A stretch of DNA of 64,000 nt, taken from positions 9,179-73,178 of the forward strand of contig MEIF01000001.1 in NCBI GenBank assembly GCA_001750645.1. The letters run 5' to 3'. The stretch is from Gammaproteobacteria bacterium AqS3. Lineage in GTDB: Bacteria; Pseudomonadota; Gammaproteobacteria; MEIF01; AqS3. The translations under genes and the position numbers were made by a program. The first letter of the stretch is position 1. Every line of letters begins with the position of its first letter. Below, in pieces: positions 1 through 34,905 of this stretch. The notes beneath the pieces are model-generated. The model did no database searches. It had not been told where the DNA came from and saw only the letters and a list, made by a program, of their open reading frames with translations.

Positions 1-2474
1 CTGATGGGAGTATAAAGATCTACTTCGACTTCAGGGGCGTGGATCGAGACCACCAGAGAATATCGCGCCTCCCCGTTGTAACGTTCCAATTTGGGTCTGG
101 CTTTCCACCAGCCCTGTGCCGGACAAACACCAATAGCCCCTCTGTTCGCAAGTTCGATGGCGGTGCCCTTCCAGATGTCCGAATGTATTGAGCCCTTATG
201 CCGGCTTTTTGTTCCAATCATCCAGCCGGTGTCATGATCCGCAACTGTTTTCCACTCTTGTTCACGCGCCTGTCTATTGATTCGCTTGTGGAAGTCTAGT
301 TTTGATTCCTCTGCACGTTTTACGTCATATCGCAGGCCATGAGAGTTATAGCCATAGCGGCCAGAAAAACCTCTTGCCGATGGATTGGGCTCAATAAAGT
401 ACGAAAGCGTAACCCGCATCTCCACTTCCGTATCTCCCAAAGCCTCCAACTCTTGTGAAGGCCAAGGAAGACTGTGAAGATGCATATTTCCTAAAGTTGG
501 GGCCGCACTGCCTTGTCGCTTGAAAGGATGCAATCGATCTTCACGAATCATAGTGAGCGAGTTTTGAACGCTCCACATTGCGCGCTGAAAATCCGGCACC
601 CCAAAACCGCAGCAGCGAACAAGTTCGGTCATGTCTTTCTTTGAAGGACGTTGAGGATTGGAAAGAAACATTTGACGCATTGCATCGGTCCACTCGGCAG
701 AGTGAACGATTAGCGCCCGAACTGTCTCCGGCCAAAGATTCGGATACTCGGCCATCAATTGTGCCGCCATTCGCGCCGCAAGCGATGTTGCGACACTAGT
801 CCCGTGTGAAGTGACAAACGGCCTCTCTTGCAACTCATAATTTGCAGTAAGAAGGCCCAAGCTCGCCTTGGGTTCAGCGTATGGTTTGTCATAGATGTCT
901 GTAACCGCTGCATTGCCCCCCTCGAGCACCACATCAGGTTTAAGCGGCCATTGCTTGTCCCAATTCAGCGAAGTCGTGCTGAAAGGGCTTAGGCCGCCTG
1001 CTTCGGCGATTGGCTGATAACCTTCAGCATCTGAATCCTTTATATGAACAAGATCAGTCGCCGCACCGACAGCCAGCGCGTTCCAACTCTGAGCCGGATC
1101 GTGAACCCCATCTGTTTTGTTGCTATCGGGATAGTTGAGCATGAACTCACTATCAGCATTTCCTGCGGAAACTATAAATAGTCGCGGAACCCCCTCATTC
1201 TCTTCCGCACCCGAAGCCAATCGATCAATGACTGCCGACCACGCAGATGGCCGTCCACGATCACGATCATCATCGGTGGTGATTGCCATGCTGAATACTC
1301 GACGTCGATAGGGAGCCGTAATACTCGGACGAGCCACAGCTTGAATAGTCAGGTTGCCATGAAAATTTGCGTCGCCCACATTGCCCTCGCGTTGGGGAAG
1401 AAGTTTTACGGATTCAAGACGGTGAATAATTTGGATTGTTCGGTCTGATGCCAGAGCTTCGGTCAAATCGCCCATCATGGCAAGCCCCGCCATTTCAGTG
1501 CCATGCCCATCACCATCTTCAGCAGATCCATTCGGGCCAATTGCATGAGCATCTATTGGCGAAAGCACAGTGGCAAGCAGAGGATGCCCATAGTTCACTC
1601 CCGTATCAAGAATACAGACATGCGGCACTTCTTCCCCTTCCGCAGGCACCGTTATCCGGTCAAACAGTTCGTTAAGGCGGTCTATTTGCTCCTTGCGCGG
1701 CAATACATTAAAAAACTCCGCAGTCCTCTTCGCCCGCCTCAACTCGGCGATGCTGTTCAAAATCTGGATCGACTGTTTCATTGCACCAACCGAACCGCAG
1801 ACAAGAAGCACAGTGCGCTCTGGGAATTGAAGTTCGCCGGGTGCAATCCGAAAACCCTGCTTTTTTGCGAGCCGCCTGAAGCTTTCTGTGACCGGAGCCC
1901 TGCCATCTCTCACAGGAAGCCAGACCTCCCACCAGAGCTCCTCCTCATCTGATGTGGGGAATTCCTCCAAATCATCTGTCCATAGAGCCTTGAGCGCGGC
2001 TGTGCGAATTTTGGAGATCGCATTGAGCAATTTTCCATTCCTTGGCCTTTTCTTGCCGTCCTTTGACTTATCCAAATACGCATGGATCAGATTCTCAAAC
2101 ATATCCAGTTTGCCATCTGGAATAAACACTGTCGCTATCGTGCGTTTTTTCTCATGACGAACATTTAATAGCTCAATGCCGGCACGCTCTCGGGTCAGGG
2201 AATTGAATGCAAGCTCAACATTTTTATAGCTCTCAAACTGCACCCGAAGCCCAAGACCCTCGACAAGCCCCTTGGACTGCTGTTCTTTGCGGGCAGCTTC
2301 GGCATGAGAGCGCAAACCTTTAATCTGACTCAGCAGCTTTGCTCCATGCTTATTCCGTTGGCGATCCGGCACGTCAGACCCGCCGCCGCCTCTCTGCGGA
2401 GATTGGAAGGGCTCTGTTTGAGGAATTCTTTTAAGAATGAAATGCCGATTACGCTTTTCGTCTGATTCAGCCAT
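1..2474 (-). CDS. Subtilisin-like serine peptidase (S8) with an N-terminal domain of unknown function (~255 aa) and a C-terminal extension. The 3' end lies beyond the window start. IetS-like.
   Basis: I translated the minus strand myself and found all S8 motifs in one frame: D in HVCILDTGV, H in DGDGHGTEMAG, N in VSAGNADSEF, S in SHGTSVATS. Start is ATG at 2472-2474, 15 nt downstream of and in frame with the ATPase stop. In the supplied bases the frame breaks at ~775-797 and again at ~719-721, and the two 1-nt changes compensate. The ORF track implies an uninterrupted frame here. This ORF is not in the supplied track. Confidence 0.8.
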   Translation of the reverse strand, partial: MAESDEKRNRHFILKRIPQTEPFQSPQRGGGGSDVPDRQRNKHGAKLLSQIKGLRSHAEAARKEQQSKGLVEGLGLRVQFESYKNVELAFNSLTRERAGIELLNVRHEKKRTIATVFIPDGKLDMFENLIHAYLDKSKDGKKRPRNGKLLNAISKIRTAALKALWTDDLEEFPTSDEEELWWEVWLPVRDGRAPVTESFRRLAKKQGFRIAPGELQFPERTVLLVCGSVGAMKQSIQILNSIAELRRAKRTAEFFNVLPRKEQIDRLNELFDRITVPAEGEEVPHVCILDTGVNYGHPLLATVLSPIDAHAIGPNGSAEDGDGHGTEMAGLAMMGDLTEALASDRTIQIIHRLESVKLLPQREGNVGDANFHGNLTIQAVARPSITAPYRRRVFSMAITTDDDRDRGRPSAWSAVIDRLASGAEENEGVPRLFIVSAGNADSEFMLNYPDSNKTDGVHDPAQSWNALAVGAATDLVHIKDSDAEGYQPIAEAGGLSPFSTTSLNWDKQWPLKPDVVLEGGNAAVTDIYDKPYAEPKASLGLLTANYELQERPFVTSHGTSVATSLAARMAAQLMAEYPNLWPETVRALIVHSAEWTDAMRQMFLSNPQRPSKKDMTELVRCCGFGVPDFQRAMWSVQNSLTMIREDRLHPFKRQGSAAPTLGNMHLHSLPWPSQELEALGDTEVEMRVTLSYFIEPNPSARGFSGRYGYNSHGLRYDVKRAEESKLDFHKRINRQAREQEWKTVADHDTGWMIGTKSRHKGSIHSDIWKGTAIELANRGAIGVCPAQGWWKARPKLERYNGEARYSLVVSIHAPEVEVDLYTPI

Positions 2475-2489
2475 CTGATGCGTGAAACT

Positions 2490-3497
2490 CTAGCGTCTCA
2501 GTTTTTGTGCATCAAGATGTTGCGAGGTCTGCAGTCGCTCTTCCAAGGCCCGCCGAACATCACACTCCCTGACCCTCTGGATATTATCAATCAGCGCCTC
2601 TTTTAAAACTTCCTCCGAAACACGGGACACTTCGTCATAACTCAGACCTGCGGCCTTGTTTGCAAGCCGCTTCCAGGACATGCCTTTAATCGCTATTTGC
2701 TCAAGCCTGGATTTGAGCAATGAGGCAATGCGAGTTTCATCGGGCAACTCGTAATGCAAAACGTTGTCAAAACGGCGGAAAAGCGCGTGATCCAAAATTT
2801 CGGGATGATTGGTCGCTGCAACGATCAAGCTGTGTGACACATCCTGCTCGATCATCTGCAGAAAGCTGTTCAAAATACGCCTCGCCTCGCCGATGTCGTT
2901 TTTATTACTGCGCTGCGAGCCTATGGTGTCGAATTCATCAAAGAAATATACGCCCCGTGTTTGGCTCGTCGCCTCAAACACCTGACGAAGTTTGGCGGCA
3001 GTCTCGCCCATGTACTTGGTTATCAAACCGTCCAAACGAACCTGGAACAGCGGCAAATTAAGCTCTCCGGCCAACACTGATGCCGTCATGGTTTTCCCCG
3101 TGCCGGGCGCACCCACCAATAAGAGCTTGCGCCTTGGGCTGAGTCCGTGAGCGCGGATTTTTGATGCCTGGCGCTGCTCTCGGATCACTCGTTTAAGTTG
3201 CCCCGCCAAGTGATCATCAAGCACCATTTCCACCAGCCGGCTCTTTGGGTGGCTGGCCGTAAGAATTCCGTCCAAAGCACCACGAGGGCGACTGATTGGA
3301 AGTGTCTCTGCCCTGTGCAGAGGCCAGCTCCGACGTTCCCTGGCTTGATCGATGAGATCCCGCAACTCCTTCGCGAGTTTGCCGTGACCGCGCTTCGCCT
3401 CGTGCGCTGCGACCTGCAGAGCCACAGAGAAAAAGTGCTCGTCATCTCCTTCAAGATGCGACTTCAAGATCGCCTTTAGCTGACTTGCGTTTGCCAT
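2490..3497 (-). CDS. AAA+ ATPase, IetA-like
   Basis: Walker A GAPGTGKT and Walker B VYFFDEFD. The second region of homology is SLIVAATNHPEILDHALFRRFD. The gene sits immediately upstream of the S8 gene on the same strand and in the same frame. Confidence 0.85.
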   Translation of the reverse strand: MANASQLKAILKSHLEGDDEHFFSVALQVAAHEAKRGHGKLAKELRDLIDQARERRSWPLHRAETLPISRPRGALDGILTASHPKSRLVEMVLDDHLAGQLKRVIREQRQASKIRAHGLSPRRKLLLVGAPGTGKTMTASVLAGELNLPLFQVRLDGLITKYMGETAAKLRQVFEATSQTRGVYFFDEFDTIGSQRSNKNDIGEARRILNSFLQMIEQDVSHSLIVAATNHPEILDHALFRRFDNVLHYELPDETRIASLLKSRLEQIAIKGMSWKRLANKAAGLSYDEVSRVSEEVLKEALIDNIQRVRECDVRRALEERLQTSQHLDAQKLRR

Positions 3498-3509
3498 GTT
3501 CTGATTTCT

Positions 3510-3701
3510 CTATCCCCTGAGTGCCTTGAACTGAGCACCTGCCTTGCATTGTCTACCAATTGGTAGAGTCTTGGCAATCCGTGCAAGTTTCTCAATATTC
3601 GGCTGAATGGATTCAGCGCCTGCCAAAGCCGGGCAGAAATCAAAGCCGTGCTGCGGGTTTTTTATCTGTATAAAAACACTGGTGTCCAAGAGATAGGCCA
3701 T
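3510..3701 (-). pseudogene. PIN-domain (VapC-like) N-terminal remnant. A further decayed fragment lies upstream at ~3708-4127.
   Basis: The N-terminus MAYLLDTSVFIQIK is PIN-like but the ORF stops after 63 aa. Adjacent frames show broken continuation, e.g. ...GTLHRDALYLLGYKKLDTFDS at 3708-3800. Confidence 0.35.
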
Positions 3702-5720: not shown

Positions 5721-6472
5721 ATGACCCGCCTCTACATCCAGGACGTCACCCTGCGCGACGGCATGCACGCCATCCGCCACCAATATGACCTAGTGTGCGT
5801 GCGCGACATCGCCCGGGCGCCAGACGAGGCCTGAGTCGACGCCATTGAAGTCGCCCACGGCGACCGACTGTCGGGCTCGACCTTCAACTATGGCTTTGGA
5901 CGGTATGCCGACGAGGTGTGGATCGTCGAGGCTGCGAAGGTGTGCCGGCGGGCGCGGCTGATGAAGAGCTACGGCGCTGCTTGTGTTTATGTCACCGACT
6001 CCGGCGGCAGGCTGACCATCGCGGCGTACGCGAGCGGTATGAGGCGCACCGGCGGATTTTGCGGGGTGACATCGAACTCGAAATTCATGCGCATGAGAAT
6101 TTGTCGGTGTCTGTTGTGAATTCTGTCGTCGCCGTCGAATGCGGGGGGACTCGTGTTGACGCCTCGCTCGCTGGCATGGGCGCCGAAGCCGGCAACTGCC
6201 ACATAGAGGCGTTTATTGCGATGGCCGATCTGCACGGCTGGACGCACAGCTGCGACCTGTTCAAGCAGCAAGACGCCGCCGAGAAACTCGTGCGTCCGCT
6301 GCAGGACCGACCCGTCCAAGTTGATCGTGAGACCCTGATGCTACGCTATGCCGGGGTGTATTCATCCTTCCCGCGCCACGCCGAGGAAGCCACAGAACTG
6401 CACGGACTCGACCCCCGCGACATCCTGGTCGAACTCGACCGCCGCAAAATGGTCGACACCAGGAGGACATGA
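5721..6472 (+). pseudogene. mhpE: 4-hydroxy-2-oxovalerate aldolase MhpE/DmpG-like remnant with internal stop and frame breaks
   Basis: [24 protein letters not shown], then a stop. Further matches follow in other frames: [73 protein letters not shown]. Confidence 0.65.
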
Positions 6473-6574: not shown

Positions 6575-8641
6575 TCAGTTGATAAGATGAATCTCAGTCC
6601 CCGACCGCATTATTCTCTGTGGCATCGGGGGAATTTCACGCTCCGATTTAATGGTCGCGGCTCCGTCCTTACCAATCTCTAAATCGTACCGCCTGCCCGT
6701 ACCATCCGAGGCACCTGACAAGCGTCGGCATAACACATCCGCAAGAGCGGAATCTTCGACCACACAAATTATCTGCCTATCATCAAGACAAATTGCTGCC
6801 AACAACTCGATTAAGTGGATCGCCCGAAAATCATCGATATGTTGAACAGGATCATCCAAAATAAGTGTGCGTAAAGGCGTCCAAGGACGAGCCAGATATA
6901 CAGACAATAAAACCGCCAAACCAAGCACACGACGCTGTCCACTACTAAAGAAAAATTGAGGATTAAGTCCTTCACCCACTTCCAGACTTAGAGACCGTCG
7001 CAAGTTTCCACGCATACTGTATTTAATGAAACGCCAGTCATGATGCGGGCGCAAACGCTGGTATAACTCCTCCAGAAGAGGACTAATTTGAGCCAATCGC
7101 TCCTTGGTTATTTCATCCAAAATACTGCGCACACCACGCTCCATAGCTTTTGCCTTATCTAGAGCACTTTCGGATTTTTCCACCTGAAATGCTGCTGCAT
7201 CCACTTCCTTCCTTAAGATTTCCACACGATCCTCAAGCAAAGAAATATTCACGACAGTTTGTGATGCCTCAAGCGTGAGCAATGCCCTTTCCAAATCAAT
7301 GAGACGCTCCCTCTCTGCTGCAACATACTTGTCCGCTGCTTGGGGATCTTGAATGAGCTGAAAATCCAAACCATAAAGTTCAAATACTTCCTTATGCTCC
7401 TGTTGCAAAGAAACAAGACGAGATTCTTCTTCTTGGATCTCAGACCACTTTTCTTGTAGCCGCATTAGTTCATCCGTCTTTTCATTAACTATGTCACGTG
7501 CTTCATCCATTTGCTGCTGGGCAACCGCAAATCCAGCGGAAAGAGATTCCATTCGTTCACGTGCGGATACAAGACCAGCTAAGAACTCTTCATCGGTTCT
7601 TGCAGCCGAACAAAGTGGACAGTTTTCACCATGCAAACCAATCTTTTCACCGTGTTCGACAATCAAAGCAAGCGACGCAGCAAAAGAGTTAGCTTCCTTT
7701 TCAATGCTAAAGATGCGTTGCTTGTCTTCAAAAATATCATCTGCTTCAGCTTTTAATTTCTTGGCGAGTTCAAGCCGATCTTTTACGACTTCTCGAGCAG
7801 CTACAGTTTCTTTTTTATCAAATTCTCTTTGATCCTCCAAAATCTTATAGCCTCGTCTGATCATCTCATTTATGCGTGCAAGATGTCTTTGACCTTCTAT
7901 CAAAGCAGAACGTCCAGAAATAATATACGATGTAATATCTTTGAAATCATCAGATGTTGCAGCATCCAAGGTTTGTTTCGCGACCGCAATATCTTCTGTT
8001 TCAACAATATCCTCTTTTGCTTCAGACAACTGGGCCAATGCATCTGTAAGCTGGTTATGCGCATCGCTATATGCTTTTTGGTTGAGTTTATGTTTAGCTT
8101 TTATATTCTCAAGTATATTTTGGGCTTTAGCTACAAAATCAGTTTTCTGGACAGCACCAAGTGCTGAATGCACGCGTTTAAAATGTTCCGTTTCACTGAG
8201 ATCGAGACCAAGTGCAGAAATCCATTCGTCGCGTATGATCAAAGATTGACAGAGTTGATGAAGAGCATCGTCTGGTTTAACTCTGTAACAGAGAGCATTC
8301 TCGATTTCCTTTAACTCTTTGTCAGCTTTGTTTCCAGATTTTTTTGTTCTGGTAATGGAAAAATTTTTATTGTCGCCATTCTTAAATGATACTGTTACAT
8401 AATGATTATTTGGGCTTCCTTCGCCTCGCCACCATAAATAATCACTAATACTTTCTTTTGCCGATTTTCCGAAAGCATATTTATTGATGGATCCAGTTAG
8501 GGCAAATTCCACAGCATCAAGAAGCGTACTCTTTCCCACACCATTACGCCCAGTGATAACAGTAAATCCCGAACCAAAAGTGACGCGAATTTTTTCGCGA
8601 TATCCACGAAAACCACAGATCTCAACATAATCTAGTTTCAC
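6575..8641 (-). CDS. SMC/Rad50-like ABC ATPase with a long coiled-coil, LmuB/DdmC-like
   Basis: N-terminal Walker A ITGRNGVGKSTLLDAVEFAL. Several hundred residues of coiled-coil heptads. C-terminal signature FFSSGQRRV and Walker B/D-loop LILDDPVQHIDD. It is the last gene of a three-gene operon that begins with a SIR2 protein. Confidence 0.75.
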   Translation of the reverse strand: MKLDYVEICGFRGYREKIRVTFGSGFTVITGRNGVGKSTLLDAVEFALTGSINKYAFGKSAKESISDYLWWRGEGSPNNHYVTVSFKNGDNKNFSITRTKKSGNKADKELKEIENALCYRVKPDDALHQLCQSLIIRDEWISALGLDLSETEHFKRVHSALGAVQKTDFVAKAQNILENIKAKHKLNQKAYSDAHNQLTDALAQLSEAKEDIVETEDIAVAKQTLDAATSDDFKDITSYIISGRSALIEGQRHLARINEMIRRGYKILEDQREFDKKETVAAREVVKDRLELAKKLKAEADDIFEDKQRIFSIEKEANSFAASLALIVEHGEKIGLHGENCPLCSAARTDEEFLAGLVSARERMESLSAGFAVAQQQMDEARDIVNEKTDELMRLQEKWSEIQEEESRLVSLQQEHKEVFELYGLDFQLIQDPQAADKYVAAERERLIDLERALLTLEASQTVVNISLLEDRVEILRKEVDAAAFQVEKSESALDKAKAMERGVRSILDEITKERLAQISPLLEELYQRLRPHHDWRFIKYSMRGNLRRSLSLEVGEGLNPQFFFSSGQRRVLGLAVLLSVYLARPWTPLRTLILDDPVQHIDDFRAIHLIELLAAICLDDRQIICVVEDSALADVLCRRLSGASDGTGRRYDLEIGKDGAATIKSEREIPPMPQRIMRSGTEIHLIN

Positions 8642-9213
8642 TTTTGTTCCAACAGCATCTTCGCAATTTCTTCAGAATTTTGATCACCAAGAAATGCATT
8701 CAGAACATCATCGGAGACACTACTCAATCTTGAACGAAACTTATCCTCAAAACCTGCATCTGAGAAAATTGGCTTGGCTTTAATTTCAGTAATAGGTAGC
8801 AAGGCATACTCAATATCTTTTGATGTATTTATATTGACACGAGCAATTTTCCGAGTCAGAGAAAAATCCTCCTCAATCTGTTCAACTTCACGCTGCCTAG
8901 ATTGATCTTTGTCTCCAGTCAAAAAGACAGAATAAACATTCCAAGCTTTATCTCCAGACATACGAAGTGCTGCACTATGCGAACTAAGTGCTTTTTGTTG
9001 TTCAAATTTCCATTTAGAAATAAGCTCTTCCGCAGATGAGAACACATAAATAAAGCCCATAATAGTTGCGCTTTCAAAACAAGTTATTGAATGTGAATTA
9101 TCAGAATACCATGACCAAGTGTCGTAACCAGAACCCCGGAGATATATTTCGGATTGTCTTGCGATATCCATTACAACTCCAACCGTTCTTGAGCTTGTTT
9201 GAAAGTTAACCAC
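8638..9213 (-). CDS. small protein of unknown function, LmuC/DdmB-like by position
   Basis: 191-aa ORF. Its stop overlaps the downstream SMC start by 4 nt (ATGA). It lies between the SIR2 and SMC genes. Confidence 0.5.
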   Translation of the reverse strand: MVNFQTSSRTVGVVMDIARQSEIYLRGSGYDTWSWYSDNSHSITCFESATIMGFIYVFSSAEELISKWKFEQQKALSSHSAALRMSGDKAWNVYSVFLTGDKDQSRQREVEQIEEDFSLTRKIARVNINTSKDIEYALLPITEIKAKPIFSDAGFEDKFRSRLSSVSDDVLNAFLGDQNSEEIAKMLLEQK

Positions 9214-10550
9214 CGCTCCTCAGCGGTCGTTCTCAATATGTTATCCGAACTTCCTCGGCCAATTATATTTCCAGGCATACCAGTCTCCTCAGCTCCCACT
9301 GCAACAAAAATATTAGCCAGGGAAGATGCCGGCGGTTCAACAGGGAAACGCTCTGCCACACTACTTATTGACTCCCCCGCACCATTAATCACTCTGATTG
9401 AATGTTCTTTCAACGTATAGCCCTCTCGCTGCTGTTGCGCACCTGCTTTCCGCAAAAGCAGGTGAAAGCATCCCAACATTTTACTTCTAATCTTGTCTGG
9501 ACATTTTTTAGTTGCAGGCTTCCTATTAGGCACTCCTTCTGCATCTCTACGCCAAGAATACAGGTCTTCGCTACTCAGCGATGAATCAACAGACAGCCAA
9601 TTTTGATTGAAGTCCAATGTAGTTCTCTGCTCAAATTCATCTCGACCTGCTGCCATTAGTTGCCGTAGATAACTCTCAGAAAATGCCCTCCGTAATTCGT
9701 CAAGCACTTCAGCCCCCGAACCCCTCACATGGGCAAAATCAATATTCGGCTGGTGCAGAAGTGCCCAGAGTTCAGGAGCCTTTTCCTCAAGAGCTTTTTT
9801 CTCTAAAAGATCAATCACTGTAACCGATTTCGGATCGGTTCCTTGAAGAGCATCAGCAATAATCTGATTAAGATAGCACCAATCAGACCAGAAACCAACT
9901 ACAAGCAGGTCCTTCTGACTCAGATTAGTTCGCATCCAATTTTTATTTTTTTCAATGCGATCAGAAATGTTTGAATTATCAAGTTGTGATTGTGTCCATA
10001 CAGTGGAAATGCGATCAAGTCTTAAGCAGCCGTGCAACTTCAAGAGCGGGGCTTGAGAGCGAGAATAATTTACCGCTTGTTCTCCATCTAGAGAACCTCG
10101 AAAATCTGCCCCATATTTCTGTGCACCTCGCTCAATTAATTCATCAAAGTTGCAAGAAAGGCAGGCAACAGCCGCTCTTGTGATCAAAAGATCTGCTATC
10201 GCAGAATGACCAAAATTAGGGTGGCTCGCAAATTCGTCCCATGGAACTAAGTTTTCAATGAAGTACACGAGTCCATTCTGTTCTTCATTAGAAAAATGTT
10301 CTGCCAGCGCCTCCAGATTCAGACGAAGTTCAGGTGACATATCTGAATCCGTGCTATCCCGATATTTATCAAAGCATATCTCGGCAATACGACTCGCGCA
10401 AGGCAGATTGCTTGGTTCAGCCATAGACAGACCGGCACCACAAAGCACTACCAATCGGTCAGCATCTATAGATCTCAGCAACCGTTTTCGAATTTTAGGA
10501 CATAACAGAGGCTCATTCATACTTGAAAACTCTTGTCTGAAGCTTCCCAA
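9171..10550 (-). CDS. SIR2-like (SIR2_2 type) domain protein, putative Lamassu LmuA-type effector
   Basis: LVVLCGAGLSMAEPSNLP resembles the GAGxS...P NAD-binding motif, and LLKLHGCL resembles the sirtuin HG motif. First gene of the SIR2 / small / SMC operon. Confidence 0.6.
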   Translation of the reverse strand: MGSFRQEFSSMNEPLLCPKIRKRLLRSIDADRLVVLCGAGLSMAEPSNLPCASRIAEICFDKYRDSTDSDMSPELRLNLEALAEHFSNEEQNGLVYFIENLVPWDEFASHPNFGHSAIADLLITRAAVACLSCNFDELIERGAQKYGADFRGSLDGEQAVNYSRSQAPLLKLHGCLRLDRISTVWTQSQLDNSNISDRIEKNKNWMRTNLSQKDLLVVGFWSDWCYLNQIIADALQGTDPKSVTVIDLLEKKALEEKAPELWALLHQPNIDFAHVRGSGAEVLDELRRAFSESYLRQLMAAGRDEFEQRTTLDFNQNWLSVDSSLSSEDLYSWRRDAEGVPNRKPATKKCPDKIRSKMLGCFHLLLRKAGAQQQREGYTLKEHSIRVINGAGESISSVAERFPVEPPASSLANIFVAVGAEETGMPGNIIGRGSSDNILRTTAEERWLTFKQAQERLEL

Positions 10551-11315: not shown

Positions 11316-12794
11316 CTAAGAAGTCAACTTTATTAGTCTCTTATATCGCGAGTCATCTTCGAACTGAGGCTGGACTCTTACTATCATTTCAAGACAATCT
11401 TTGAGATGCCCTTTTGATATTTGAGGAACCTTTGCATCAATAATGAGAGCTAAGAAGTCTAAAGTTTCTGCAGGCTTGATTCCACATAACTCTGACTTAT
11501 GCAACTCGTAAATCTGGTCGGAAGGCACATCCGCTGTAATAGGGACCAACCAATCGCGAAGGAGATTTAGTGCTTCGGGAAAGTTCTCATGCGCCGCAAC
11601 ACACAAACGGCCCAGACCTTCAGAAATATCAGCATGTTCATCAGGAGTCAAATTCCCCGGATTTTCTGGCCAAATTGCTTTCAAGTAGGGAGCAATCCGA
11701 TTCAACCAATAATCAGCACGCTGATCACCCGCATCTCTCAGTGTTCTCACTAACGTCTGAGTCACCTTTTGCAGACCATCCGGCGGCAGAAGGCGAGTAG
11801 CCTCGGCCAACTCGGAATTGAGGAAATTACCATCAGGGTTTAGGGCAGTGACAGTGATGAAATCAGCATATTGCCTACCGTGTGTTCCCAGAGCTTGATA
11901 ATGATTTACAGTGTCAAGAACGTTGTGCTTGATAGCCTCCATCAAAGGAGGATAAACGTAGGGGTTCAACAAGAATCCTCTCCAAATCGAGGCTGCTTCA
12001 TCTGGAAATCGATCCCAATCAAACAAAGGAAGCAGATATAAATCTGTCCATTCCTTATCCACAGTAAATAGCGCATCAGCATAGTTGGCAAGTATCACAC
12101 GACCATGGCGGTATTGTTGGATCTGTAAATCACACAACTTGGTGAATACAGGCTCAAGCTCGCTCGGTAACTTTTGACCTTCTTTGGGCGGCCACCGATA
12201 CCACCAACGAAACAGTGCTTCTGTCACATCTCCCACTGGATGATTGATAGCGCAAAAGACAGGATCTTCGCTATGTATCAAGATTTTATGTTCTATGGCA
12301 AGTATTCGCTTTACTAGTGAGAAAAAATGTGTTTCATCTTTTTCAAAGCTTTTGGCCATCAGCCATAACCACCGACTGATTTCCTCGGCAATGTCAGGCA
12401 ATTTATCGTCTGGAATACCAGCCAATAGAACAGCCATTTTGCCCCAAGATTTGTGAATGACCTCCTCCTCAGGCCAAGACTGAAAAGCTTCGTGCCAGAA
12501 CATAAGCCGCCAGTTATCTTTATCAGCCAGCTCACATAAGGCATCAGCTGTCGCATCAAAATCGTCGCGACATTTTTTCCGCCAATCTTCTCGCGCATGC
12601 GTATTGGTGACAGAATGTTTATTGAGCCAAACAATCAGTTTTTGAACTTTAACAGAATGAGATTCATCATTCTTACTTCCCTTAGAGTAACGGCGAGAGA
12701 GCTCCTCAAGCTTTCTCCTAGATTCTTCACTCAAATCTATACCTGAAGCCTTCATCTCTGACAACCTCAACCAGATTTCTCGATCCTTACTCAT
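11316..12794 (-). CDS. C-terminal half of DSR2-like protein, unit 3, helical partner domain
   Basis: Homologous to the C-terminal third of the 1242-aa fused protein and to 14979..16772. Shared blocks are INHPVGxxTEAL..WWYR, KYRHGRV.LA, LLPLF.W and YADFITV.AL. It is in the same frame as the upstream SIR2 ORF, separated by TAG + AAC. Confidence 0.7.
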   Translation of the reverse strand: MSKDREIWLRLSEMKASGIDLSEESRRKLEELSRRYSKGSKNDESHSVKVQKLIVWLNKHSVTNTHAREDWRKKCRDDFDATADALCELADKDNWRLMFWHEAFQSWPEEEVIHKSWGKMAVLLAGIPDDKLPDIAEEISRWLWLMAKSFEKDETHFFSLVKRILAIEHKILIHSEDPVFCAINHPVGDVTEALFRWWYRWPPKEGQKLPSELEPVFTKLCDLQIQQYRHGRVILANYADALFTVDKEWTDLYLLPLFDWDRFPDEAASIWRGFLLNPYVYPPLMEAIKHNVLDTVNHYQALGTHGRQYADFITVTALNPDGNFLNSELAEATRLLPPDGLQKVTQTLVRTLRDAGDQRADYWLNRIAPYLKAIWPENPGNLTPDEHADISEGLGRLCVAAHENFPEALNLLRDWLVPITADVPSDQIYELHKSELCGIKPAETLDFLALIIDAKVPQISKGHLKDCLEMIVRVQPQFEDDSRYKRLIKLTS

Positions 12795-12797
12795 GTT

Positions 12798-14915
12798 CTA
12801 CTCCTCAAACTCTGAATCGTGATTAGCCGGCCCTGCGATAATCGCCTCCTCAAGCCTCTTGAACTCATCTGGATTTAGCCTCTTCGGGAGTACCCTGAGT
12901 AACTCCAGAACTTCAGGTTCACTTTCCGAAGCCCAGAGCCATTTACCCTCCTCTTCCAAAAGCCAATCTAAAGCGATACTAGCAGGGATTGCGTCACCTT
13001 GAGCGGCAGCGAACAACGCGAGCCTTTGAAAAAGCGGGCAAGGTTCAGTCCACCAAGATATTGCCTCAGCAGTCGCCTTATATGTCGACTGCCTTTCCAA
13101 GGCTAGCCAAGCATTACGGATAGGGTCTATCAACGTCATCCAATCGTGAATATTATCATCTCGAGAATGCTCATTGATCGAAGTCTGTCGAATATATACC
13201 AATCCACTTTCTTGATTTGCGGACTCAGTTTTCTGGATAAGATTAAAAGCATTTCGTAATGAATCAGTAAATTCAGGCAGAAGTGTCGGCAACGCCGATA
13301 TCCATTGTTCTTCATTATTAAGCTCCATCAAAGAATCAGTATTTCCGCCTGCCAAAGCAACCTCCCAATAAATCAAAACTCCCTCATCCTCGGGCACTTG
13401 TCCCCTAGCCAATTTATCAAAATCGCGCAACAATATGCGCGGGTTCAGAAGTTTCCGAAGCTCTTGAAGTGAGAATTTAGTCAGCCCATCAAGCCTAAAT
13501 TCGTTACACCAGATCTGAAAAGACCGACTCCGCCCTTCACGTCTAATACTCCTTTCAATCAACCGCTCCCAAAGTTCTCGCATGAACGGATTGAAGCCGC
13601 CTTCATCCCTACTATCATTAGTCTCTCCATCAATCAGCTTATATAGATGCCTGCGAAAAAACCAAGAAAATTTCTCGCGTAATTCACTGCCATCATTGGC
13701 GAGCCATTCCAGCAGTCTTGGATCATTAAAGTGACTAGTTAACCAAGAAATCAGGGGCTTCTGCATTTCATTCGCTGTTCTTTCTTGAACTCGTGTATCG
13801 GTAACGTTCGTTAAAGACTCCTTGAATCTTCGATTTTCAGCCATGGGCTTCAACCAAGCTAAAGAGTGAGCCGGATTCGACTGTGCGAAGCATTCAGATG
13901 GTTTGCCACTAGGATCTCTTAGTACCCATAACATTAAACCGACAAAGTAGCTCTCCGGGGTGTTATTAATAGGGTCGTAATGGACATACTTTTTAACGAT
14001 ATTCACTTTACCTTGCTCTTTTTCATCATAAATTTTTGCCCACTCTTTTAGCGTCTCATGTAGGAGAGTATGTTTAGGATCGGCATAGTACAAAATAGGT
14101 GTGACATTTTTAGCATTCCATTTATCGGCTGTCTGTTCCCTTTCATCAATTTTATGATCTGCAAAAGCAAACATTTCTCTAGTCGGTTCTCCAAGCAGAC
14201 TGTCCGCAGCGAGCGCATCAGTCATGTAACGTATCACTGGATCATTAAGACTATAACCGACAAAGCAAATGATGTATCTACGAAACAACTCGCTCACAAA
14301 ACGAGCCGCCCAACGTTCTGTAAGATATGCCCGACCAAAATCTCCGCTGGAAAGCACCAAGGAATCCAGATCGTCCTCTGTAGGCTCTTGCATCAAAAGG
14401 CCATGCAAATAAACCAGTCCATCCCATCCCTCTTTAGGCACAGGTAATAATGGTGCTTGAAAAGTCTTGGACAGCATCGAACTATCATCATTCATTACCG
14501 TTTCAAATAGACGGTCAAAGTTGGTAGTAACCAAGCGCATGCGGGATTTCTTTTTTGGCTGCTCCCGCGTCTTACTGAGTTTTAACAGTGAATTGTGAGT
14601 TGCAGTCGCATCTGGACAATTAAGTTTGGGCTTCAAAATATCAGGCAGTATGTCTCGCACTTTCTTGCGCCCAAAACGCTGGTTTTTCTCCAACAAATGA
14701 ATGGCACTATCAAATCGCTCCTTATCTATTTCCGATTGTGGCAAAGGGTCATTTGCATCTGAAAACTGATTTACAAGCTGCTGTGCCAAGCAAGCAAAAT
14801 CAGGTAACTTAGCTGAGCGGGATATTCCAGCACCGCAGAAGAACACCACATTGCCCTTCTCATGCTCATCCAATAGATGCTCAGGAATGTCAGGGCCGTT
14901 TTCAGTAAATTGCAT
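12798..14915 (-). CDS. DSR2-like SIR2 (NADase-type) domain protein, N-terminal half of unit 3
   Basis: N-terminal motifs VVFFCGAGIS..LP.F, LVTTNFDRLFE and LVYLHGLL, the SIR2_2 pattern seen in DSR2/ThsA. The C-terminus ends ...ALDWLL..WLW..LLRVL..IIAGP, which is part of the shared linker region. Confidence 0.8.
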   Translation of the reverse strand: MQFTENGPDIPEHLLDEHEKGNVVFFCGAGISRSAKLPDFACLAQQLVNQFSDANDPLPQSEIDKERFDSAIHLLEKNQRFGRKKVRDILPDILKPKLNCPDATATHNSLLKLSKTREQPKKKSRMRLVTTNFDRLFETVMNDDSSMLSKTFQAPLLPVPKEGWDGLVYLHGLLMQEPTEDDLDSLVLSSGDFGRAYLTERWAARFVSELFRRYIICFVGYSLNDPVIRYMTDALAADSLLGEPTREMFAFADHKIDEREQTADKWNAKNVTPILYYADPKHTLLHETLKEWAKIYDEKEQGKVNIVKKYVHYDPINNTPESYFVGLMLWVLRDPSGKPSECFAQSNPAHSLAWLKPMAENRRFKESLTNVTDTRVQERTANEMQKPLISWLTSHFNDPRLLEWLANDGSELREKFSWFFRRHLYKLIDGETNDSRDEGGFNPFMRELWERLIERSIRREGRSRSFQIWCNEFRLDGLTKFSLQELRKLLNPRILLRDFDKLARGQVPEDEGVLIYWEVALAGGNTDSLMELNNEEQWISALPTLLPEFTDSLRNAFNLIQKTESANQESGLVYIRQTSINEHSRDDNIHDWMTLIDPIRNAWLALERQSTYKATAEAISWWTEPCPLFQRLALFAAAQGDAIPASIALDWLLEEEGKWLWASESEPEVLELLRVLPKRLNPDEFKRLEEAIIAGPANHDSEFEE

Positions 14916-14978
14916 TTGAACTTATGGAATCAGGATGTGACTACAAAATAACCGGACAATATTACAGCAAGCCATATC

Positions 14979-16772
14979 TTAACCACCACCATGTTGGCGA
15001 GCCAAAGTATTCAATCTCACATATTGAGGATGCTTTTTAAGATGCGGTGCTTCATCCCGTATCGCATCAAGACAGCTCCTAAGTTGATCTACCGGTAAAT
15101 ACGGTATCTCGTTCTTGACAATCAAATCCAAAAACTCCAGTGCCTTGTCCGGATGATTTTTACAGAGGCCAGAATCATTAAGGGCATCGATTTGGTAGGA
15201 ATGGTCGGTTCTAATTGCACCCAACCAAGACCGAAGAAGATCGAATGCTTCTGGAAAGTTCTCTTCTGCCGCGATACATAAACGGCCTAGGTTTTCAGAG
15301 ATTTCAGGATCAACTCCCTGATTATCCTGTGGCCATATATCCTGTATGTAGGGAACAATTCGATTCTGCCAACAATCCCTCCGCTGCTCTCGCGAACCTT
15401 CAAGCACTTCCCATAATGTTTGAGCCGACCTACTTAAACCTTCTTTTGGAAGTTTTTTAATAGCCTTTGCCAGCTCTTTCTTTGTGAATGTTTCGCCCGC
15501 ATCAAGAGCAAGGAAAGTAAGGAAATCAGCATACTGACTACTGTGATCGCCCAAATCACCATAATGGTCTGGTTCTGCTGTATCAAGAAAATCGGCTTTG
15601 AGAGCATCCATCAGAGGAAGATATAAGCGGGGTGTCCAAAGAAAACTCCTCCAAGCCAAGTAAGCTTCTTGCGAAGATTTCCAGCTGAATAAGGGCAACA
15701 AATTTTCATGCGTCCACTTAGGATCAACCCTGAATATCGTGATGACATTGTCAGCTAGGAACACACGGCTATGACGATATTTTTTAATTTCGATGTTACA
15801 TAACTCAGTAAATATTGATCTAACTTTTTCATCTAATCCAAGATTATCTCTAAGTGATTGGCGATACCACCAGAATATTAATGCTTCGGTTGCATGCCCA
15901 ATTGGGTGGTTAATAGCTTCTCCGACAGGATCTTTTCTATGCTCATCATCTTCATTGTCAAAGTTAACAATCTCAACATTAGCTGCTTTTACGTTCTCAT
16001 GATCCGAACTGAGAATTCGTTCCACAAGCTCGAAAAAATATTCTTCTTGCCCATCAAGCACTTTGGCAATGTCCCGCAACCATAAACTAACATAACGAAC
16101 AAGATCTGGGAATACATCCTCTGGAACTTTAACTAAAGTCCAAGCCAACTTCTCCCAAGATTCTTGGAAACGCTTTTCTTCCGACCAAGCCCGCAGGGCG
16201 TCTCGCCAGCGCACAGAGCACCAATGATTCTCTTTAGCTAGTGCACACAAAGCATCAGAGGTCAAAGCGAAATTGTCCCGGCAACGCTGCCGCCAGTCAT
16301 CTCGCTGTAGGCCATCCGTGCCAGGGTTCTGTTTGAGCCACTTAATGAGTTCAGGGAGCGTGCTCGGTGTGGTGGTAAATTCAGTTGCCTCGTCACCTTC
16401 ACTCACCCGGAAAGAAAATTCGTCTCTTTGATCCTCTGACAGCTCCCACTCTGGATGCTGACTAGAAATATCTTTCAGCTGATCTTTAGCAATTTCACTC
16501 AAATCTGCTCCTGCTTCCTCCATTTTTGCCAGACGAAACCAAATGTTCATGTCTCTATATCTGCGCCAGTACTCAGGGTCAATACCCTCTCCATAAAGGG
16601 CGCGGGGCGGGCCTGCAAGAATGGCTTGTTCTAGCTCAGCCAGCAAGTCTTGTTCAAGTTTCGGTGCGAGTGACACCAGCAAACGCATAACTTCTCGCTT
16701 GGTTTCAGGGACCCAAAGCCATCGGTGCTCACTATCCAAGAGCCAGCCCAATGCACGACGATTAGAAATCAT
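14979..16772 (-). CDS. C-terminal half of DSR2-like protein, unit 2
   Basis: Start chosen at MISNRR, where the ATG overlaps the upstream TGA as ATGA at 16769-16772. The track's longer ORF is an N-terminal extension. The protein begins with the linker block RALGWLL..HRWLW..VMRLLVSL..ILAGP and continues through the same conserved blocks as unit 3 and the fused protein. Confidence 0.7.
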   Translation of the reverse strand: MISNRRALGWLLDSEHRWLWVPETKREVMRLLVSLAPKLEQDLLAELEQAILAGPPRALYGEGIDPEYWRRYRDMNIWFRLAKMEEAGADLSEIAKDQLKDISSQHPEWELSEDQRDEFSFRVSEGDEATEFTTTPSTLPELIKWLKQNPGTDGLQRDDWRQRCRDNFALTSDALCALAKENHWCSVRWRDALRAWSEEKRFQESWEKLAWTLVKVPEDVFPDLVRYVSLWLRDIAKVLDGQEEYFFELVERILSSDHENVKAANVEIVNFDNEDDEHRKDPVGEAINHPIGHATEALIFWWYRQSLRDNLGLDEKVRSIFTELCNIEIKKYRHSRVFLADNVITIFRVDPKWTHENLLPLFSWKSSQEAYLAWRSFLWTPRLYLPLMDALKADFLDTAEPDHYGDLGDHSSQYADFLTFLALDAGETFTKKELAKAIKKLPKEGLSRSAQTLWEVLEGSREQRRDCWQNRIVPYIQDIWPQDNQGVDPEISENLGRLCIAAEENFPEAFDLLRSWLGAIRTDHSYQIDALNDSGLCKNHPDKALEFLDLIVKNEIPYLPVDQLRSCLDAIRDEAPHLKKHPQYVRLNTLARQHGGG

Positions 16773-18706
16773 GAGCTTTCTGCCAAAGCTAAAAATACAA
16801 GCCTGCGAAATATTGGGTAACGAATACCCCACCAACGCTCCACCTCCATGGCTGCTTGCTCAGGGGATTCTTCTTTCAGAGCAATCCACGCATCCCAGGT
16901 CAGATCAATTAATGCAGTCCAATCATGAAAAGCTCTGTTTTGGGAATGCCTGCTAATGGATGGTTGATAGATATAGGACATGTCATTCATATCATCAGCC
17001 GCTTCAAGCCCCCTCATAAGATCAAGCACCGAACGCAACAAACTAGTAAATTCGGGCAGAAGTTCCGGCAGTGCTTTCTGCCACTGAGGATCATTAGAAA
17101 GTCTTTTGACAGCATCATGGACATTACCCGCTGATAATTTAATCTCCCAATTAACTAGGTCGTTGATGTGTTGAGGTTTTTCACCATCAGCATTCTCGAT
17201 CGAACCGCGGAATGGCTCGCTTAACGATATATATGGGGTCAGATTTTTTCTAAGTTCTCGACGCGAGGTCGGAGTGAACCCATATCGCTTGAATCGATCA
17301 TGCCAAAGATACATATCAAAGTTGCGTGCTCCGGGCTTAACACATCCTGTCATCAAGAGGCACCAAAGTTTCCACATTAATCGACTGGGAATACCATTGG
17401 GAGAATTTTGACGAATACGCCTCAATTCATCAATTTTACGCTTGTTTTTCAGCTCAGACAACTCGTTCAATCTATCTTCGATTAATCTCACAAATCTATC
17501 ATCCAATCTGTCACCGTACTGAGAAAGCCAAAGTAATAATCGCGGATCATTAAGATGACGTGTCAACCAGGGCATCAATTGTCGTGTCACATCGTCCCAA
17601 TTACCTCTTTGAACACCTGTTTCAAAGATATTGGTCAGGGGGCTTAGGTACAGCCAATCTAAAAATGGTGCCGAGTTATGCTCAGAAAAGCGTTTGGCAG
17701 GCAGGCCGGTAGGATCCTTCAAAGCCCATAACATCCGAGCAATAAAGTTATCCTCTTGAGTGCTCTCTCTGGGTTTTGTGCGAGCAAGTTCAATGACGAT
17801 CTGTTCCTTGCCTCTCACTCCATCACGATAAGTTTCAGCCCACCGCAATAAGGTCTTATGCAAGTAAGTGTGGCCACTATTTTCAAGGTACAAAATAGGT
17901 CTAACACTCTTTGCCTCCCATTCATGTCGAGACTGCTCTTCTTCATTTTCTGCATGGCTGCCAAAGGCAAAGACCTCTCTTGACATATTTTCAGGCGAAC
18001 GATCAGCGGCAAGTGCATCCATCATATAACGCAGCATTGGATCGCCAATGCTATACCCAACAAAACATACGGTGTAATTGCGAAACAATTCACTTAGAAA
18101 ACGTGCCGCCCAGCCATCTCTAAGATATGCCCTTCCAAAATCACCACTTGAAACAATTAAATCTCCCTGATTATCCCTGGGCCATTGTCCCGTCAAAAGA
18201 CCATGCAGATAGACCAATCCATCCCACTGATCATCTTTTGGAATGGGTAGCAGCGGTGCCTGAAAACGGTCGACTTTCAGTAATCTCTCGGCAATTGCTT
18301 TTTCAAATAGACGATCAAAGTTAGTCGTGACTAAATGCATAGAATTGCTGCGCGTCTTACCCAGTGTCAATAGAGCTTCGTGTGTGTCAGTGGGAGCATC
18401 AAGGCGTACCTTCAAAATATTGGCAAGTCCTTTTCTAATGGTTTTGGAACCGCCAGCTATATATTTTTCCATCAGATTAATAGCAATATCTAATTGACTA
18501 TCACAAATCGCCCTATTAATGGTGTCCCTGATTTGAGGATCAACCCTATCTGAAAAATTGTCATATAGCTTCCTTACCAACCCATCAAAACCCGGCAATC
18601 CAGCTGGATAGGAAATTCCAGCACCGCAGAAGAACACCACTCGACCATCCTCGTGTGCTTGTAACAAGGATTCTGGAATATCGGGGCCGTTGGGGATAAA
18701 TTGCAT
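16769..18706 (-). CDS. DSR2-like SIR2 domain protein, N-terminal half of unit 2
   Basis: MQFIPNGPDIPESLL, VVFFCGAGISYPAGLPGF, LVTTNFDRLFE, LVYLHGLL. Ends FRRLVFLALAESS, just before the linker block. Confidence 0.8.
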   Translation of the reverse strand: MQFIPNGPDIPESLLQAHEDGRVVFFCGAGISYPAGLPGFDGLVRKLYDNFSDRVDPQIRDTINRAICDSQLDIAINLMEKYIAGGSKTIRKGLANILKVRLDAPTDTHEALLTLGKTRSNSMHLVTTNFDRLFEKAIAERLLKVDRFQAPLLPIPKDDQWDGLVYLHGLLTGQWPRDNQGDLIVSSGDFGRAYLRDGWAARFLSELFRNYTVCFVGYSIGDPMLRYMMDALAADRSPENMSREVFAFGSHAENEEEQSRHEWEAKSVRPILYLENSGHTYLHKTLLRWAETYRDGVRGKEQIVIELARTKPRESTQEDNFIARMLWALKDPTGLPAKRFSEHNSAPFLDWLYLSPLTNIFETGVQRGNWDDVTRQLMPWLTRHLNDPRLLLWLSQYGDRLDDRFVRLIEDRLNELSELKNKRKIDELRRIRQNSPNGIPSRLMWKLWCLLMTGCVKPGARNFDMYLWHDRFKRYGFTPTSRRELRKNLTPYISLSEPFRGSIENADGEKPQHINDLVNWEIKLSAGNVHDAVKRLSNDPQWQKALPELLPEFTSLLRSVLDLMRGLEAADDMNDMSYIYQPSISRHSQNRAFHDWTALIDLTWDAWIALKEESPEQAAMEVERWWGIRYPIFRRLVFLALAESS

Positions 18707-18876
18707 CTGAATCTAAGAAAATGAAATAGAACCCTACATTTGACAACAAATCTCTTGCAGGCTGTCTATATGTGCTACAGACGAACAGGCAATTCTACAC
18801 CCACTATTTGGCAATTCTCCATAGCACTTAAAACCTTTATTGACCTAAGTAATAGGATCACGCAAAAAACAGAAGG

Positions 18877-19395
18877 TCAATTTCCCTTCTTATTAGCCTG
18901 AAATTCCTTATCCAACTCAAGAATGGCCTTCAAATTTAAGCGACAAATTTTTGGTGTTTTAGATAGCTCATGCCAAGCATAAACATACAACAAGTTTTCA
19001 CCATATTGCTCTACAGATTTAAGTATAGGTTCAATCTCCACTACATTTTCCCATATATCACTGGATTCCAAAGCATGCGGCAACTTGAAATATTCACGCG
19101 GAACAAGATTTCCCTGTACTGGGCTATTAATAATCTTTGCCCATCTATTCTTATACATCAGAAAATCCAAACGAGTTAGGTTAGTGCGCGAATATCCTCT
19201 ATTGCTTATAGACATGATAAGAAAAGGCGGTCGACGGGGCAGAATTCCTTCGTCGAAATAGCCTTTTTCTAGCTTCACATTAATATTTAGCTTAGGTTTA
19301 TTTGAGTGCTCTCAATAAACATTCCAGAAAAAAGTAAATAATCCGACAATTGCACCAACCCATGCTGCATATTCTGTATAGCTAAATTCTTTCAT
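18877..19395 (-). pseudogene. paralog of the N-terminal-TM small protein (10653..11174), carrying an in-frame TGA at 19312-19314
   Basis: MKEFSYTEYAAWVGAIVGLFTFFWNVY, then TGA, then the same frame continues to 18877. The N-terminus aligns with MEEFSYTDIAAWVGVFIATISLAWNIY. Total length is 173 codons, against 174 for the intact paralog. Confidence 0.55.
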
Positions 19396-20002
19396 CTTGC
19401 CCTCCATTATCAACTTGGTTAACCAAGCTCCCCTCCTCTCCTTCAGAGCATAAAGCTAGACACTCTTCGCGATTTTTGATCATATATTTCCAGATATCAT
19501 CTTCAAATGTATATGGCATCGTTGACAAACTGCCTGACCGCGTTGACACTATCTTTTTATCCACTAAGCCCATTACAGTTGCATTTCTAGAATTTCTATA
19601 GAATGTTTGATCCTTATTATTTAGACATTCCCATAAAATTTCTTTCTCTGGCACATTTAAATACTGGAGTTTCTTGATCTTATCGCCTAATAATTTTTGT
19701 TTCTCCTTAGATTCCTTTCGTCTTTGAAGAATATATTTCAAAATTCCTTTGGGCCCTAAAATACACATCCACACCAATGCAACTAAACTAAATAAACAAG
19801 ATAAAAAAATTATAGATTTTGTAAGAACAAGCCAAGTTTCAATATCAATAGATGTAGAAAGTCCATGCACGTCAATAAGTGCAACAACCTTATCCCAACA
19901 AACAAGAATAACTAAAGTACCCAGAGAAATAGTGCAAGCGGTAGGCTTCCCCCCATCACGCAGCAATGTTGAGAAAGCTGAAATTTCTGATATCACTGAC
20001 AT
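19382..20002 (-). CDS. hypothetical 2-TM membrane protein
   Basis: 206-aa ORF with two hydrophobic helices at ~25-45 and ~60-85 and a Lys-rich charged segment. It lies directly downstream of the fused DSR2-like gene. Confidence 0.45.
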   Translation of the reverse strand: MSVISEISAFSTLLRDGGKPTACTISLGTLVILVCWDKVVALIDVHGLSTSIDIETWLVLTKSIIFLSCLFSLVALVWMCILGPKGILKYILQRRKESKEKQKLLGDKIKKLQYLNVPEKEILWECLNNKDQTFYRNSRNATVMGLVDKKIVSTRSGSLSTMPYTFEDDIWKYMIKNREECLALCSEGEEGSLVNQVDNGGQDERI

Positions 20003-34900: not shown

Positions 34901-34905
34901 TCACC

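Follow-up and report, generated by a model that had tools for sequence, protein, structure and literature searches.

An IetAS-type pair of AAA+ ATPase and S8 protease genes, apparently intact, in a defence island of the sponge symbiont AqS3

IetAS, a two-gene module of an AAA+ ATPase (IetA) and a subtilisin-like S8 protease (IetS), is said to have been recognised as an anti-phage system by Gao et al. in 2020. The present analysis concerns a candidate module of this kind in the first 3.5 kb of a 64,000-nucleotide stretch of DNA from the sponge symbiont Gammaproteobacteria bacterium AqS3 (contig MEIF01000001.1, positions 9,179 to 73,178), which is referred to as the window and in whose numbering coordinates are given. 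According to the earlier work (Yamamoto et al. 2009) as it is cited in PMC13069673 and PMC8562856, the family was first reported as a toxin-antitoxin system for the stability and incompatibility of plasmid pTiC58. The protease is the toxin and the ATPase the antitoxin, whose loss is lethal or yields mutants that cannot be cloned (PMC8562856, PMC13069673); in the presence of ietS an ietA mutant cannot be constructed, and the activity of the protease is needed for defence (PMC13069673). Members of the family protect against phages (bioRxiv 10.1101/2022.08.27.505566; PMC13069673), and IetAS was described to act by abortive infection that can be triggered by a single phage protein, YosG of SPbeta (bioRxiv 10.1101/2022.08.27.505566). 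In E. coli, Type III restriction-modification (R-M) systems and ietAS are co-localised, and phage assays were carried out with a two-gene ietAS cloned from a single strain (bioRxiv 10.1101/2022.08.21.504612), while a variant that depends on a helicase, ietHAS, has been described as well (PMC13069673).

Compared with these systems, the pair at the start of the window is, with high probability and as judged from its sequence, an intact two-gene module of the IetAS family, that is, a toxin-antitoxin-like abortive-infection system. Both genes lie on the minus strand. The upstream one, ietA (2490..3497), is a listed open reading frame (ORF) of 335 codons with an ATG start, the 335-aa AAA+ ATPase of the original prediction, and matches the IetA profiles of PADLOC and the AAA domain of Pfam. 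The downstream one, ietS (1..2474), is missing from the ORF list and was recognised from its open frame, from identity to a database protein and from its match to the IetS profile. The minus-strand frame that begins at 2489 runs through 829 codons with no stop down to base 1, and the remaining two minus-strand frames below 2490 are packed with stops. The stop of ietA is the TAG at 2490-2492 and the first start codon past it is the ATG at 2474, with no alternative start between them, so that the spacer (AGTTTCACGCATCAG, 2475..2489) measures exactly 15 nt and both genes share one frame. From this ATG 824 codons lie in the window, in agreement with the predicted protease of more than 820 aa placed 15 nt after the ATPase in the same frame. 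The database protein P0001 (840 aa), which NCBI lists under 'Gammaproteobacteria bacterium AqS3' as an S8 family peptidase, is identical (100%) in its residues 1-824 to the window translation, and only 16 codons (RQEIAAQSAIEFEPES) and a stop lie beyond the window start, as anticipated for a 3' end that runs past the window. The gene is absent from the ORF list because ORFs running off an end go unlisted, which was also the suggested explanation; thus a 2.5-kb protease gene remained unlisted solely owing to its off-window stop, and this gap in the annotation is now closed. Together, ietA and ietS comprise 1,159 uninterrupted in-window codons.

Assignment to the family was made with the profiles of PADLOC, without PADLOC's own thresholds, and both proteins matched nearly full length, in support of the predicted IetA/IetS module. 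The ATPase was matched by four PADLOC IetA models, best by PDLC02196 (E 2.2e-76; residues 1-325 aligned to positions 1-325 of a profile of length 374), and the protease by eight IetS models, best by PDLC02198 (E 1.2e-43; residues 55-815 aligned to positions 44-765 of a profile of length 795). Profile searches with Pfam found both expected domains, a single AAA domain in IetA (E 8.9e-31) and Peptidase_S8 (PF00082) in IetS (E 1.3e-56, residues 285-611, 642..1622, minus strand). The two genes are adjacent and co-oriented, with the ATPase first, the S8 protease second and a short gap between them; the AAA+ motifs are intact, and so are the S8 catalytic triad and the oxyanion Asn.

IetA is, by its sequence, an AAA+ ATPase of the classical clade with intact motifs. 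Reading along the minus strand, these are Walker A GAPGTGKT, which includes K135 (3090-3113), the pore loop KYMG (3006-3017), Walker B FFDEFD (2928-2945), sensor-1 ATN (2808-2816) and the arginine fingers FRRFD (2766-2780). Among proteins of solved structure, IetA comes closest to p97/Cdc48, NSF and PAN, in each case to the D2 ring (E ~1e-47). IetA agrees with the family consensus at 155 of 168 highly conserved positions, a share that is low among its close relatives and above that of the Ti-plasmid IetA.

All four catalytic motifs announced for the protease were found in canonical subtilase contexts: D290 in ILDTG (1605-1607), H324 in GHGTE (1503-1505), the oxyanion N439 in SAGNA (1158-1160) and S560 in HGTSV (795-797), all on the minus strand. 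In an alignment of 143 diverse homologues (36-65% identity) D290, H324 and S560 are invariant and N439 is conserved in at least 90%; of the 116 family positions with a conservation of 90% or more, IetS matches the consensus at 115. With motifs intact and conserved positions kept, the module looks functional, as far as can be read from its sequence.

The relationship extends to the Ti-type plasmids of Agrobacterium. Plasmid pATPC2 of Agrobacterium fabrum encodes a 328-aa ATP-binding protein 3 nt upstream of an 836-aa S8 peptidase, a pair that we infer to be the published founding ietAS locus. The IetAS pair of Agrobacterium Ti plasmids shows the gene order and tight spacing of the window pair, with an ATPase of ~330 aa and a protease of ~836 aa. 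Window IetA is 52% identical to the pATPC2 ATPase over 322 aa and window IetS 40% identical to the peptidase over 831 aa (query residues 35-840), so that the N- and C-terminal domains of the protease are included, and the catalytic residues and AAA+ motifs are the same. The two pairs differ in that the window pair is chromosomal and lies in a genomic island of a sponge symbiont whereas the Ti pair is plasmid-borne, and they belong to different subfamilies by the cut-offs of NCBIfam. The Mycoplasma system TA132/133 (PMC8562856), which can be likened to the window pair by its description, also has the gene of the ATPase antitoxin upstream of that of the S8 protease toxin in one operon; there the protease is toxic, the ATPase neutralises it and deletion of the antitoxin alone is lethal, and the proteins measure 353 and 757 aa.

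The assignment to IetAS was weighed against a housekeeping AAA+ protein (a fragment of FtsH, CbbX or PAN type) that stands by coincidence beside a secreted nutritional subtilase, the case that the original prediction had itself named as its undoing. The AAA and S8 domains of Pfam are generic, and some plasmid annotations name the ATPase 'FtsH', which would suit this view. Nevertheless, the FtsH, PAN, CDC48 and CbbX models scored only 23-102 bits against IetA, with cut-offs of 459-803 bits, whereas IteA was the best model at 216 bits and IteS was likewise the best for the protease. IetA has neither an M41 domain nor a transmembrane segment. No signal peptide was found in IetS, its first 70 aa holding no hydrophobic stretch (Kyte-Doolittle maximum 0.05 over 15 residues), in line with the prediction, and no transmembrane segment was found in the whole protein (19-residue maximum 1.33). 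As the pairing is moreover conserved across phyla in 68 of 80 loci, the housekeeping explanation is refuted and retains practically no probability.

The conservation of the pairing was assessed in 80 loci collected with IetA as the query, in which the homologues are 63-76% identical to it and come from many phyla and from several sponge-associated metagenome-assembled genomes (MAGs). IetS lies directly downstream of IetA in 68 of them (Proteobacteria, Acidobacteriota, Gemmatimonadota, Chloroflexota and others), mostly with gaps of 3-32 nt, and the claim of a recurring ATPase-then-protease order with a short gap thereby held. In six loci (L028, L030, L035, L047, L071, L078) IetA is kept while IetS is gone or reduced to a remnant, and several further loci have a split or truncated IetS or one into which 2-2.6 kb have been inserted (e.g., L042:11012-15600 and L067:11021-16101). 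Survival of IetA without IetS is the asymmetry expected for an antitoxin and a toxin, although the reverse case, IetS kept and IetA lost, could not be detected in a collection made with IetA.

Many relatives carry further genes around the pair. In 22 of the 56 loci with enough sequence a Mod-like methyltransferase of ~930 aa (PADLOC MTase_III PDLC03632, E=0) ends ~30 nt before ietA, and it is usually preceded by a protein of ~1,020 aa with a ResIII domain, a Res-like protein that had no match in PADLOC. On the other side, the stop of ietS coincides or overlaps with the start of a gene for a RelE-N/UvrD (GajB-like) helicase of ~690 aa in 20 of 55 loci; when the helicase of a relative was itself used as the query, the best 120 matches were all at least 73% identical. 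The five-gene operon Res-Mod-IetA-IetS-UvrD helicase is complete in 19 of the 80 loci (e.g., L017:4111-15000, L024, L016 and L084:2-10858), and in six to eight loci (among them L013, L015, L018, L026 and L006) the pair is set between Type I hsdR-hsdS and hsdM. The two closest relatives of IetS that were examined (~65% identity) both have the helicase, and one of them has Res and Mod.

These arrangements raise the possibility that the pair is the core of a larger R-M-linked system of Res, Mod, IetA, IetS and RelE-N/UvrD helicase that is inactive alone, in which case the window copy would be incomplete or would have its helicase off-window. Besides the operons themselves, the published co-localisation of RM III with ietAS (bioRxiv 10.1101/2022.08.21.504612) and the existence of ietHAS (PMC13069673) speak for such a system. 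The core of ietHAS (Liu-DS4; PMC13069673) is IetA and IetS with a helicase, and a helicase is found also in relatives of the window pair; that of ietHAS is, however, of the SNF2 type, whereas that of the relatives is a UvrD/GajB-type superfamily 1 enzyme with a RelE-like N-terminus encoded downstream of ietS. Against a compulsory larger system stands that about 45% of the loci are bare pairs, with neither partner in 24 of 80 loci, and that the pairs of Ti-type and Cupriavidus plasmids lack Res, Mod and helicase. A tblastn search of the window with the Res, Mod and helicase of relatives found nothing near the pair, not even a remnant, the downstream position of the helicase lying off-window. 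Furthermore, modules that consist of just an AAA ATPase and an S8 protease work as toxin-antitoxin systems (PMC8562856), and the ietAS cloned for the phage assays of bioRxiv 10.1101/2022.08.21.504612 likewise had two genes. On balance we consider the larger system possible but somewhat doubtful for the window copy and retain the two-gene IetAS module as the preferred reading.

Nesting of an effector in an R-M operon has a parallel. PrrC of EcoprrI is an anticodon nuclease encoded in a Type Ic R-M operon and serves as an abortive-infection effector. The IetAS of relatives resembles it in being nested in R-M operons (Type I, Type III-like); the likeness is one of analogy only, as the chemistry of the effectors differs and the window copy is not embedded in an R-M operon. 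Along this line, the IetAS clade might be a portable protease-based backup for R-M enzymes that would come into action once its R-M partner has been disabled or evaded by a phage, much as PrrC guards EcoprrI. The window copy would then be a decoupled core or would keep its helicase off-window, and IetA, as the three-domain fold of pro-subtilase type suggests, would control a zymogen-like switch in IetS. We regard this proposal as unlikely.

The domain layout of the protease bears on how such a switch could be built. IetS, which is cytoplasmic and has a mass of ~92 kDa, is made up of Y4kK_N, the S8 domain and a beta-rich C-domain, and its D/H/N/S site is complete. The N-terminal region (residues 1-275, 1650..2474, minus strand) is delimited by precomputed Pfam assignments and by the AlphaFold model. 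An N-terminal domain of ~255 aa and unknown function had been predicted; the pre-catalytic region is indeed present, but it is larger, ~275-284 aa, as the S8 match begins at 285, and although uncharacterised it is assigned to Pfam PF27160 Y4kK_N, a recognised family whose namesake protein is itself uncharacterised. PF27160 is precomputed on all 120 IetS homologues among the matches listed. A Pfam scan of the window IetS and 51 family members, with a copy of Pfam that returned no Y4kK_N match, found no domain besides S8, and a profile search of PDB sequences returned subtilisin cores only and nothing outside S8.

Structure prediction depended on the alignment supplied to AlphaFold. With 51 sequences at ~60% identity the model reached a mean predicted local distance difference test (pLDDT) of 48, and with the diverse 143 sequences a pLDDT of 91 and a predicted template modelling score (pTM) of 0.86. 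In the latter model a short conserved beta-hairpin (residues 12-22) is joined by a Gly-rich linker that is disordered (27-34) to a long helix (40-67), which is followed by alpha/beta units up to ~275 and then by the S8 domain; the N-region is mostly confident. The C-terminal beta-rich domain (residues ~640-824 in the window and on to 840; 3..557, minus strand) is modelled with a pLDDT that mostly exceeds 90 and comprises seven to eight strands (640-812). The top Foldseek matches were the pro-form of Tk-SP (3afg), EpiP (3qfh), furin, Kex2 and PCSK9 (E 1e-12 to 1e-19), that is, subtilases with C-terminal jelly-roll or P domains, and the alignments were far longer than those to targets with S8 only. 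The predicted fold of IetS is thus closest to pro-subtilases and kexin-type enzymes bearing a propeptide and/or a P-domain, which share the S8 core with N-terminal propeptides and/or C-terminal beta-sandwich domains, with IetS identity of only 12-16%. Pro-subtilases and kexins work outside the cell or in a lumen and become active through autoprocessing. IetS, unlike them, is cytoplasmic and paired with an AAA+ protein, and the likeness holds at the level of the whole model.

The IetS family comprises at least 1,153 clusters at 50% identity (E <=1e-30; 1.8 billion cluster representatives scanned). Among the best 150 clusters nearly all members are ~790-900 aa long, match nearly full length and keep the C-domain, apart from a handful of shorter fragments, which makes the three-part layout a trait of the family.

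From the published homologues a working mechanism can be outlined. IetS would be a toxic effector neutralised by IetA, apparently active IetA being required. The intact pore loop and the homology of IetA to unfoldase-type enzymes lead to the proposal that an IetA hexamer restrains IetS: it may engage IetS, possibly through the conserved N-terminal tail and the Gly-rich linker, and hold it in, or repeatedly remodel it into, an inactive, zymogen-like state. A phage protein would then act as the trigger by blocking or diverting IetA, and the freed protease would arrest or kill the infected cell before phage release. The same module could also stabilise its island by post-segregational killing.

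The last point, carried further, gives an explanation in which the pair would be mainly an addiction module that stabilises the island by post-segregational killing and has no anti-phage role. The origin of the family as a system for plasmid stability and incompatibility of pTiC58, as the cited accounts have it, suits this view, as does a tblastn search of plasmids, in which 502 records, including 214 from Klebsiella and 55 from Agrobacterium, carried homologues; 344 of the 502 are conjugative. The pair moreover lies in horizontally acquired low-GC DNA. On the other hand, family members protect by abortive infection (bioRxiv 10.1101/2022.08.27.505566; PMC13069673), the immediate neighbours in the window are defence genes and not mobility genes, and the roles in defence and addiction are not exclusive. 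An addiction module devoid of an anti-phage role is therefore improbable, and the abortive-infection module is kept as the preferred interpretation.

As to expression, a consensus scan gave a candidate sigma-70-like promoter for ietA (-35-like TTGCCA, 18-nt spacer, -10-like GACAAT; 3548..3577, minus strand), 51-80 nt upstream of the gene. The spacer of this promoter contains, 55-70 nt upstream of the ietA start, the 16-bp sequence TCTACCAATTGGTAGA (3552-3567), which is a perfect palindrome; the 64 kb hold just one other perfect palindrome of this length or more, at 47159-47174. It is not conserved in the relatives, and as a single case it is suggestive of an operator. A conserved operator palindrome upstream of ietA in the relatives was considered and rejected, since their palindromes, at a similar distance, are the conserved coding 3' end of the upstream methyltransferase (ending in GRIAVKVINHLGDEVMKVFRV and the stop). 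On a Cupriavidus plasmid (L082:6682-8023) the gene of a 105-aa helix-turn-helix regulator overlaps the start of the AAA ATPase gene, a hint at a transcriptional regulator of their own in some IetAS loci.

The 15-nt spacer before ietS contains no Shine-Dalgarno-like motif, so translation of ietS is likely coupled to that of ietA, and the arrangement suggests that both genes are on one transcript. The shared frame of the two genes is without evident meaning because the TAG stop separates them, and several in-frame spacers of relatives hold additional stop codons. The length of the spacer is divisible by three in about 31 of 51 relatives, where one third would be expected, with start codons taken from tblastn alignments and loci that are not phylogenetically independent; this excess is probably not meaningful.

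Several points weigh against an intact and active IetAS module. The best matches in NCBIfam, IteA_antiphage (NF042959) and IteS_antiphage (NF042956), remain below the equivalog cut-offs (216 vs 510 bits for IteA and 73.8 vs 900 bits for IteS), so that the window pair belongs to a subfamily other than those that these models describe, and its function is extrapolated from relatives at 40-52% identity. The literature on IetAS yielded no experiments on this clade, and according to PMC13069673 the field does not yet know the molecular mechanism of IetAS or the way in which IetA holds IetS in check. IetA has 13 substitutions at otherwise conserved sites, which places it at the low end among close relatives, and about 40% of the relatives, the two closest examined among them, carry extra partners, a Type III-like Mod upstream and a UvrD-type helicase downstream, that are possibly required. 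The assignment of the promoter is weak, sigma-70-like sites being no commoner in the region than in shuffled sequence. Finally, neighbouring genes of the island (Dsr1, Mod) are split, with gene decay or a MAG assembly error as possible causes.

The pair is real but ordinary, specialists would find nothing surprising in it, and it has been published before that RM III and ietAS are co-localised. What the analysis adds is a label for the first 3.5 kb as a complete and, by its sequence features, apparently functional IetAS module in a defence island of AqS3. The very large family, the confident three-domain model of pro-subtilase type and the operons of relatives with R-M genes and the UvrD helicase may serve as guides to experiments.

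The setting of the pair is that of a defence island. The GC fraction is 0.667 in the host DNA (37-64 kb), whose foreign counterpart, the first ~36 kb, has fractions of 0.51 in ietS, 0.54 in ietA, 0.59 at 3.5-6.5 kb and 0.43 at 6.6-33 kb. With megablast, positions 1-3600 matched nothing among E. coli genomes or plasmids. Look-ups of IetA and P0001 as exact proteins and an exact 42-mer search of metagenome contigs returned nothing either. The original prediction had placed the pair at an island edge; the Lamassu-like, Dsr1 and Type III R-M neighbours make the association with a defence island real, but the only edge at which the pair can be placed is that of the window, since the left flank lies outside it. 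No tRNA gene and no Rfam match were found in the 64-kb window, and no integrase among the ORFs scanned in it.

Directly upstream of ietA, the segment 3498-6574 consists of short broken ORFs on both strands, with a GC fraction between those of island and host, and looks like decayed DNA at the junction of separately acquired cassettes. It includes a DUF4411 (PIN-like) remnant of 63 aa that adjoins ietA (3510-3701) and covers only the first 24 of 159 profile positions, and a fragment of a DmpG/MhpE-type aldolase (5918-6472). This surrounding decay bears on whether the pair could be a silent relic, with frames intact but unexpressed or non-functional in a decaying island. The DUF4411 fragment and broken aldolase gene, the splitting of two of the three Dsr1 paralogs and of one Mod paralog, the lack of a Shine-Dalgarno sequence before ietS and the 13 unusual substitutions in IetA are in keeping with a relic. 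The pair itself, however, is uninterrupted over its 1,159 in-window codons with all motifs intact, IetS keeps all but one of its conserved positions (115/116), and a broken antitoxin beside an intact toxin would be lethal. A relic thus appears very improbable, and an intact module remains the favoured reading.

Beyond the decayed segment, a Lamassu/ABC-3C-like set of three genes (6575-10550, minus strand) consists of the gene of an SMC-like ATPase of 688 aa (PADLOC LmuB, E 4.6e-40), an ORF of 191 aa that matches MComp1 weakly and the gene of a SIR2_2-domain protein of 459 aa. It is followed by three tandem Dsr1 (defence-associated sirtuin) paralogs (11316-23779, minus strand) with a mutual identity of only 40-50%. 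One of these is intact (1242 aa, 20051-23779), and two are split into N and C halves (12798-14915 and 11316-12794; 16769-18706 and 14979-16835); pseudogenes, a natural two-gene form and frameshifts in the MAG are all conceivable causes of the splits. Between the Dsr1 copies lies a SieB-like ORF of 206 aa (19382-20002, minus strand; Pfam SieB, superinfection exclusion protein B, E 5e-7).

Further along, the segment 23849-32558 (minus strand) encodes a Type III Res of 1041 aa (PADLOC REase_III, E=0) and, ahead of it, three diverged Mod paralogs, which are 45-71% identical and lie at 30867-32558, at 28876-30468 and, in split form, at 27982-28833 and 26919-27779; this layout with multiple Mod genes is unusual. 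An ORF of an HNH endonuclease (33588-34061, plus strand) and one of an alpha/beta-hydrolase (35259-36299, minus strand) follow, and the GC fraction climbs from ~0.45 to 0.68 across ~33000-37000, marking the right-hand border of the island.

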